Below, piece after piece: positions 33,105 through 33,236 of a stretch of DNA of 64,000 nt. The notes under the pieces were generated by a model. That model made no database searches, was not told the origin of the DNA, and saw only the letters and a list, made by a program, of their open reading frames with translations. Source of the stretch: Myxococcales bacterium (GTDB taxonomy: Bacteria; Myxococcota_A; UBA9160; SMWR01). The translations under genes were made by a program, and so were the position numbers. The first letter of the stretch is position 1, and the number at the start of each line of letters is the position of its first letter. The stretch spans positions 45,725 through 109,724 of the forward strand of contig JADFQO010000002.1 in assembly GCA_022561775.1 (NCBI GenBank), written 5' to 3'.

Positions 33105-33236
33105 GCGCCACGACCGCGCCAAGTCGTGGCGCAACGGTGGCGCGGCGTGGCGCAATTGGGCGTCTAGATTTGGCTATGTGTCTGATTTCGCGGAAGAAAA
33201 GTGCCGCTCCGTCACGTGGCGCAACGGTGGCGCGGC
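33105..33236. repeat. GTGGCGC iteron cluster (candidate origin or operator)
   Basis: GTGGCGC at 33126, 33137, 33147, 33216 and 33227 (10-11 bp phasing), plus an inverted copy at 33105-33111. The 22-mer CGTGGCGCAACGGTGGCGCGGC occurs twice, at 33125 and 33215. Confidence 0.55.

Follow-up and report, generated by a model that had tools for sequence, protein, structure and literature searches.

A 64,000-nucleotide stretch of a Myxococcales metagenome-assembled genome (MAG; GenBank assembly GCA_022561775.1, contig JADFQO010000002.1, positions 45,725 to 109,724 of the forward strand), hereafter the window, contains an integrase-bearing island in which a cluster of GTGGCGC heptamers precedes a replication operon. 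Judged from its sequence, the cluster is made up of genuine iterons belonging to the class (G/C)TGNNGCA, with the allele GTGGCGC(A). The reading that we tentatively favour, while rating it somewhat short of an even chance, is that the cluster is an orphan phage-type origin array to which a winged-helix initiator/helicase encoded by a phage would bind in trans. The array is called orphan because the island has no helicase of the AAA_25/winged-helix (AAA_25-wH) type and because the island's own replicase has a separate and different array. As a preliminary description of this DNA had stated, the repeats occupy a 205-bp gap (33054-33258) directly upstream of a minus-strand operon that comprises a helix-turn-helix (HTH) gene and a Prim-Pol/DUF3987 replicase; the stop codon of a 341-aa gene lies on one side of the gap and the start codon (ATG) of the HTH gene, which encodes a 73-aa HTH_17 protein, on the other (Table 1).

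All the positions that the preliminary description gave for GTGGCGC are correct, namely 33126, 33137, 33147, 33216 and 33227 on the plus strand and 33105 on the minus strand. Together with a second, degenerate inverted heptamer that it did not mention (33116-33122, GCGCCAA on the plus strand), the six exact copies lie inside 130 bp. The direct copies are spaced by 11 and 10 bp in cluster A and by 11 bp in cluster B, in agreement with the helical phasing proposed earlier, and the exact inverted copy begins 21 nt ahead of the first direct copy. Neighbouring copies of the two clusters are separated by 69 nt from start to start, and the units by 90. The exact repetition of a 22-mer was likewise borne out: CGTGGCGCAACGGTGGCGCGGC is found at 33125-33146 and again at 33215-33236, 90 bp apart, where no such repeat is expected even when 3 mismatches are allowed. 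At 85% identity, the repeated stretch grows to 33 nt, with 22/22 identical positions in the 22-mer and 6/11 in the 11 nt to its left. The shorter unit GTGGCGC-N4-GTGGCGC (18 bp) has a third copy, which is inverted and carries one mismatch, at 33105-33122.

The clustering of GTGGCGC is not a product of chance. The window holds 30 copies on both strands, against 21 ± 4.6 expected, and six of the 30 are packed into 130 bp; random placement of 30 sites, repeated 20,000 times, gave a five-site cluster once and no six-site cluster. The GTGGCG[GA] boxes at 34871, 35072 and 35174 that had been listed as related are at background frequency, since the window has 38 such sites and 32 ± 6 are expected. 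What the analysis supports is that the GTGGCGC repeats did not arise at random, are phased with the helix and are built like iterons to which an initiator binds.

The IMG/VR collection of viral sequences was scanned with two patterns taken from the window, the triple GTGGCGC-N4-GTGGCGC-N3-GTGGCGC and the doublet. The triple was found in seven contigs, and in six of these the surroundings of the match contain 9-16 heptamers; the doublet brought in five more arrays. In at least eight distinct viral contigs, a GTGGCGC array lies 60-150 nt past the end of a gene for an AAA_25/winged-helix helicase (L214/215/220, which are one phage, L218, L219, L231, L221/224/237 and L222; examples of the class are the IMG/VR contigs 3300048915_000064, 3300011102_000182 and 3300043403_000017). 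These helicase-linked arrays have 6-16 copies each. The helicase was assigned by Pfam AAA_25 at E = 1e-44 and by a conserved C-terminal winged-helix-like domain in the alignment, and the array-linked helicases are 37-100% identical to each other (tblastn); in L219, a Toprim primase gene stands ahead of the helicase gene. Two contigs from the search with the triple fall outside the helicase context, L217 with a different arrangement and L216 with only three copies. From their position and anatomy, the phage arrays are presumably replication origins.

The phage arrays and the window resemble one another in geometry as well as in the heptamer itself. Direct neighbours in the phage arrays are 11 bp apart in ten cases and 10 bp apart in three, the window values being 11, 11 and 10. 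The inverted copy precedes the first direct copy of the doublet or triple by 19-21 nt (21 in the window), and a second or further cluster lies 45-100 nt away, which is also within 100 nt in the window. One phage, L218, has the same core as the window: an inverted copy, 14 nt, and a direct triple spaced by 11 and 10. Two features used to define membership of the class, at least five copies of one (G/C)TGNNGC 7-mer in about 300 nt, and direct copies 10-11 bp apart with an inverted copy offset by 19-21 nt, are present in the window, which has six exact copies and one degenerate copy in 130 nt. We put the probability of a chance match of both heptamer and spacing at about 1% or less, by estimate rather than by computation.

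The relationship was also examined in the reverse direction, in the 420 nt that follow the gene in 78 relatives of the AAA_25-wH helicase. Most of these loci carry 4-10 copies of one 7-mer, and the alleles found across them include GTGGCGCA, GTGGGGCA, GTGGAGCA, GTGCGGCA, GTGTGGCA, GTGGTGCA, CTGGGGCA and others. For GTGGCGCA, there are nine loci with at least four exact heptamers, or 11 when the hexamer core is counted, and their helicases are 44-100% identical. Because the 78 relatives yield such an allelic series, we regard GTGGCGC as one allele of a family-wide iteron form, the class (G/C)TGNNGCA. No published description of these arrays after AAA_25-wH genes was found in the literature searched. 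A different allele is found even where two helicases share 80% identity, as with GTGGCGCA and CTGGGGCA (loci L371-L450).

Two extensions of this comparison were rejected. Repeats upstream of the HTH gene in L083 and L040, two other islands of the replicase family, could not be classed as phage iterons in the same way, as the viral scans gave mostly chance or low-copy matches with no link to replication genes. The 18-mer was also searched in metagenomes and gave more than 120 matches, 104 of them doublet-only, which is compatible with chance in GC-rich coding DNA. One unrelated metagenome contig (L187, 30-81) has a perfect inverted repeat of the 18-mer, GTGGCGCAACGGTGGCGC ... GCGCCACCGTTGCGCCAC, downstream of a 528-aa ORF.

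The island's replicase belongs to a family with an array of its own. In a sample of 80 loci with relatives that are 41-61% identical (best segment) and come from many phyla, about half have an array at the stop codon of the gene, in which three direct units of 9 bp are followed, after 10-30 bp of spacer, by three inverted ones, as in ACGCGACAAAAGCGACAAAAGCGACAAAAG - N20 - TTATGTCGCTTATGTCGCTTATGTCGCAT. A test that requires a 9-bp-periodic triple and an inverted partner was positive at 49/83 replicase 3' ends and at 0/415 control regions. The last residue of the winged-helix motif FGR[N/H] changes together with the iteron base that immediately precedes the conserved CG: Asn goes with ACG in 29/29 loci and His with GCG in 22/23, with about 17 parsimony changes per character on the helicase-domain tree. 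Because of this covariation, there is good computational evidence that the Prim-Pol/DUF3987 replicase reads the 3' arrays. We found no description of the 9-bp 3' arrays or of the Asn/His covariation in the literature searched. In most members of the family, the array is followed by a small gene beginning M-x-D-Y-L-D/E-I-A-R; in the window, a TubC_N-docking-domain-like gene (29602-30048, minus strand) has a start that overlaps the replicase stop, as it does in the closest relative, L004 (12154-).

The window has such a canonical array at 30100-30193, which came to light through spurious Rfam miRNA matches and a direct repeat. It reads GGGGGGATA TGGGGTTTA TGGGGCAAA - spacer - TTTACCCCA TATACCCCT TATCCCCCC and was positive in the test, with 14/18 matches in the periodic triple and 24/27 in the inverted partner. 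Its unit is GGGG(C/T)A, unlike GTGGCGC, and the array type is common to L004. The array is coding and gives the replicase tail ...HRGGYGVYGAKG...AFTPYTPYPPSG. It is likely to be the origin of the island's own replicase. The GTGGCGC gap was negative in the same test: its best self-match at lag 9 is 8/18, its period is 10-11 bp and its arms are 3 bp apart. The GTGGCGC cluster also lies away from the replicase stop, about 0.8 kb upstream of the replicase start. Because it differs from the array at 30100-30193 in unit, period and place, the GTGGCGC cluster is not the likely origin of the replicase, and the idea that it substitutes for a missing canonical array is ruled out by the presence of that array. 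The earlier suggestion of an origin thus holds insofar as the cluster looks like iterons, and probably does not hold for the Prim-Pol replicase, to which the repeats had been linked by analogy with P4.

Under the reading of an orphan phage-type array, a winged-helix initiator/helicase from a co-resident or helper phage would bind the phased heptamers in trans. The bound molecules would share one helical face; those on the inverted copy would oppose those on the direct triple, and the doublet 90 bp off would carry another patch. As the leader of the HTH / Prim-Pol operon is filled by the array, three effects can be envisaged: binding of the phage protein might fire replication of the island from the array, the array might titrate the phage protein, or binding might tie the expression of the replication operon to infection by the phage. 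It is possible, though rather unlikely, that the island is satellite-like and holds the origin iterons of a helper phage in its own replication leader without the cognate initiator. The outcome of such an arrangement, put forward with the same reserve, would be 'origin piracy', an iteron decoy that interferes with the phage by drawing the initiator off its origin, or a signal that switches on the Prim-Pol replicon.

If true, the island would sense or exploit a phage replication protein through borrowed origin repeats, and binding in trans by a phage initiator would offer a sequence-level handle on helper-satellite pairing in uncultured Myxococcota. The 9-bp 3' arrays with their Asn/His covariation and the (G/C)TGNNGCA arrays hold whichever reading prevails, and both regularities furnish ready predictions of initiator-iteron specificity.

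In favour of an orphan array, no AAA_25 gene was found in the 64-kb window (tblastn), and no ORF in it matches the winged-helix profile of the AAA_25 family (hmmsearch, E ≤ 10). Several observations weigh against a phage-type array. It is not beside an AAA_25 gene as it is in the phages, and it sits instead in the operon leader of another replicase. The phage unit is AAG-GTGGCGC-AAA, with G(-1) in 52/57 units and A(+7) in 53/57, whereas these bases are only half conserved in the window, at 2/6 and 3/6 respectively. Because the flanking bases fit the phage consensus poorly, the same protein may not bind the window units. The polarity of the array with respect to the upstream gene is opposite to that in the phages, no arrays of this type are present in Rhizobium phage RHph_X2_26, a cultured relative (43% identity), and no helper phage is known for this MAG. 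Some of the resemblance is also built in, as it was a pattern taken from the window that led to the phage class. Lastly, hairpins followed by T-runs on the coding strand could be the function of the clusters or an added one. The 341-aa protein and the replicase were considered as homologues of the phage winged-helix domain and rejected, since profile comparison (hhalign) and hmmsearch were negative; no HTH_17 genes were seen beside the phage arrays.

The best-surviving alternative, which we nonetheless regard as rather unlikely, is an operator of the island: one of its DNA-binding proteins (the HTH_17 protein, the two small paralogues of the operon or the 341-aa protein) would bind the two 22-bp sites 90 bp apart and control the HTH / Prim-Pol operon, possibly by looping the DNA. 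The array occupies the sole gap directly upstream of the operon. Its 18-bp unit of two heptamers 11 bp apart is present in three copies and suits, on general grounds of size, a dimer-of-dimers binder, and the 22-mer has been kept at 22/22 positions while the 11 nt to the left agree at 6/11. Other islands of the family have element-specific pairs of repeats upstream of the HTH gene that are unlike their canonical arrays; in L008 (3060-3230) there are two TCAGTT doublets 89 bp apart, and paired repeat clusters are also seen in L083 (4558-4724), L040 (4429-4615) and L076 (4870-4960). An upstream regulatory array is thus recurrent in the replicase family without being universal; repeats before the HTH gene were rejected as a general rule, being significant in only a minority of 55 loci.

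No sigma-70-like promoter was found in the gap, and the candidate binders themselves also speak against an operator; nothing in the analysis ties the autoregulatory operator of the preliminary description to a protein. Homologues of the HTH protein (67-81% identity, with an identical recognition helix, SPRTYERWR) sit behind CCGATTAC boxes and not GCGCCAC, homologues of the small paralogues (65-67% identity) have no GCGCCAC repeats upstream, and the attempt to tie GTGGCGC to either protein through its homologues was abandoned. The paralogues and the 341-aa protein gave no family or fold assignment. For the paralogues, the label of ribbon-helix-helix (RHH) proteins used earlier could not be confirmed, with no Pfam, PHROG or NCBIfam match, and the AlphaFold monomer of a paralogue is all-helical with low confidence (pLDDT 63). 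An operator would also leave unexplained the coincidence of motif and geometry with the phage iteron class. In L085-L089, two to three direct CCGATTAC boxes precede the HTH homologues at intervals of 50-60 nt, and a GC-rich palindrome comes after every box; in L087 the partner of the HTH module is a D5_N/DUF5906 primase and not a Prim-Pol.

A precedent for an operator is ORF56, which acts at the orf56/orf904 promoter of the Sulfolobus plasmid pRN1. There, the repressor and the replicase share an operon, with the promoter region upstream and an origin stem-loop of about 100 bp downstream of the Prim-Pol/superfamily 3 (SF3)/winged-helix replicase (PMC4234260). Origin stem-loops have also been reported 3' of the replicase genes of related phages, and the canonical 3' arrays fit this placement (PMC4234260). 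Like pRN1, the island combines the gene of a small DNA-binding protein with that of a Prim-Pol helicase in a single operon; the 3' end of the replicase gene has an origin-like palindrome (30100-30193), and a regulatory region, the site of the GTGGCGC cluster, precedes the operon. The island differs in that the bacterial 3' element is composed of 9-bp iterons, whereas pRN1 is reported to lack an iteron structure (PMC4234260), and in that the GTGGCGC repeats go well beyond a single operator in complexity and match the phage iteron class.

The idea first proposed for these repeats, in which they would act like the crr of P4 as accessory sites of the Prim-Pol/DUF3987 replicase that the island encodes, is now improbable. 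The alpha protein of P4 binds ori and crr through its C-terminal winged helix (PMC4234260). The winged helix of the Prim-Pol/DUF3987 family also reads short repeats; as in P4, direct and inverted repeats of this kind form two sets kilobases apart near the replicase gene. The His that the window replicase has at the covarying position predicts a unit starting with GCG, which GCGCCAC fits, and the relatives L010 and L083 use the units GCGCCAT and GCGCGAA. The cluster, with three direct and two inverted copies, also has the polarity of the family arrays. However, the canonical place is already held by a different unit, with its likeness to L004 and a half-copy at 31448-31485, and the period of the cluster is 10-11 bp, not 9. 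As for the predicted start, the canonical GGGGCA also starts with G, and GCG is common by chance in G+C-rich heptamers. In P4, ori and crr share one iteron, whereas the two arrays of the window differ in unit (GCGCCAC vs GGGG(C/T)A) and in period. The window replicase is moreover of the Prim-Pol/SF3 type and that of P4 of the Toprim type. The P4-like link is not supported, the family having its own conserved 9-bp 3' array.

Tandem intrinsic terminators, or an attenuator, are given a low probability as the sole explanation. In this case, two RNA hairpins with T-runs would stop transcription of the 341-aa gene before the operon, and the heptamers would be a by-product of a duplicated arm. Both hairpins have the features of intrinsic (Rho-independent) terminators, being GC-rich, followed by a T-run and located downstream of a gene; hairpin 1 begins 20 nt past the stop of the 341-aa gene, and hairpin 2 is the top terminator-like match within 20001-40000. 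Both folds of the coding strand are strong (z = -3.3 at -23.6 kcal/mol and -4.9 at -38 kcal/mol), and hairpin 1 uses G-U pairs that are possible only on the sense strand. Terminators are a serious co-explanation because the 3' arms, which are unlike in sequence and register, both pair with the same 22-mer. Terminator-like sites, on the other hand, are not enriched in the genome (17 vs 17.0 expected, 21 vs 16.3 and 13 vs 13.6), and the asymmetry between strands is slight (-23.6 vs -21.4 and -38 vs -39 kcal/mol). Neither three phased heptamers nor exact identity over 22 nt is required of a terminator, and the phage arrays of the same type are not tied to T-runs. Termination could co-exist with protein binding. 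A model of antitermination by a Pseudomonas AlpA-type protein was discarded, as that AlpA is a larger Q-like protein and not a 70-aa HTH_17 protein.

We consider it doubtful, to much the same degree, that the cluster is a decaying remnant of a phage origin that was acquired by recombination and has no present function. The orphan state of the array, its imperfect flanking bases and its polarity, reversed with respect to the neighbouring gene, are what a remnant would show; the 22-mers, however, are exactly identical while their flanks have diverged. The region is also identical in three further assemblies, which has little weight as they represent the same strain.

Least probable of all is a sigma-54 promoter, in which the inverted doublet would be the -24/-12 element of the operon and the other copies activator sites or incidental: myxobacteria use sigma-54 widely, the gap is without a sigma-70-like promoter, the relaxed pattern TGGCRC-N5-TKGC has four matches in the window against 0.8 expected, three of the four being repeat units, and one copy, some 55-70 nt ahead of the ATG of the HTH gene, faces that gene, but two of the three copies face the other way, the -12 element is TGGC and not TTGC, no enhancer-binding protein was found encoded in the island, and only one doublet would be accounted for.

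The island may also be compared with the staphylococcal pathogenicity islands and phage-inducible chromosomal islands (SaPI/PICI), in whose origins iterons flank an AT-rich stretch 3' of the rep gene. As in these, two iteron clusters surround a G+C-poorer spacer in an integrase-bearing island with its own replicase. The difference is that the GTGGCGC cluster lies upstream of the operon and not 3' of rep, the 3' array of the island being elsewhere.

Table 1. Coordinates of the repeat elements, candidate signals and genes of the island (window positions; strand as + or -, or. where none applies).
Feature	Position	Strand	Remarks
Tyrosine integrase (Arm-DNA-bind_3 + Phage_integrase)	36065-37258	-	Island gene
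80-aa HTH_17 gene	34383-34625	-	
341-aa protein	33259-34284	-	Function unassigned; stop 20 nt before cluster B
Hairpin 1 (putative terminator)	33200-33239	-	-23.6 kcal/mol; then TTTTCTTCC (33192-33200); 5' arm is cluster B
Cluster B, distal direct doublet	33216-33233	+	Starts 33216, 33227; within second 22-mer copy
Inter-cluster spacer	33154-33200	.	G+C 42.6% vs 62.5% in window
Hairpin 2 (putative terminator)	33104-33154	-	-38 kcal/mol; direct and inverted heptamers; then CTTCTCTTTT (33094-33103)
Cluster A core, direct GTGGCGC triple	33126-33153	+	Starts 33126, 33137, 33147
Inverted doublet	33105-33122	-	GTGGCGC 33105-33111 and degenerate TTGGCGC 33116-33122
Sigma-54-like match	33107-33121	-	TGGCGCGGTCGTGGC (GG-N10-GC); points at HTH operon
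73-aa HTH_17 (excisionase/AlpA-like)	32832-33053	-	First gene of replication operon
69-aa small protein	32626-32835	-	Paralogue of 116-aa protein, 52% identity over 44 aa; no family match
116-aa small protein	32279-32629	-	Paralogue of 69-aa protein
Replicase, 745 aa	30045-32282	-	Prim-Pol + PriCT_1 + DUF3987-type helicase + C-terminal winged helix
Array-arm half-copy	31448-31485	.	82% identity; in replicase interdomain linker, encodes SYTPYTPP
Canonical array	30100-30193	-	Inside 3' end of replicase ORF

A 9.8-kb contig from another sample covers about 27.8-37.6 kb of the window, and this span hints at the extent of the island; a flanking direct repeat and a tRNA were looked for at the element ends and none was found. 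The gap is identical in the three further assemblies, which are of the same strain, and no information could be drawn from variation. The nearest relative of the replicase, in L004, is 66% identical in the C-terminal part only, and its intergenic DNA could not be aligned.

Other features of the window were recorded in the course of the analysis. The Rfam int-alpA RNA motif (RF02996) has a match at 34297-34365 on the minus strand, with 42.3 bits against a gathering score of 35.8, in the stretch that separates the 80-aa HTH_17 gene from the 341-aa gene. Two genes for outer-membrane beta-barrel proteins (OMP_b-brl), at 35390-35956 on the plus strand and at 37674-38570 on the minus strand, flank the integrase gene, and the first of them lies beside a stretch of 765 nt without a called gene (34626-35390). 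Several short direct repeats with a spacing of 128-188 nt (e.g. CGTGGAATTGTGAGGCGAAGCGCCCGAAGGC, in two copies) are present at 25659-26037, where no convincing ORF was seen. To the left of the island, a direct repeat of 257 nt is found at 23042-23298 and 24135-24391, the copies being 85% identical and 1093 bp apart.

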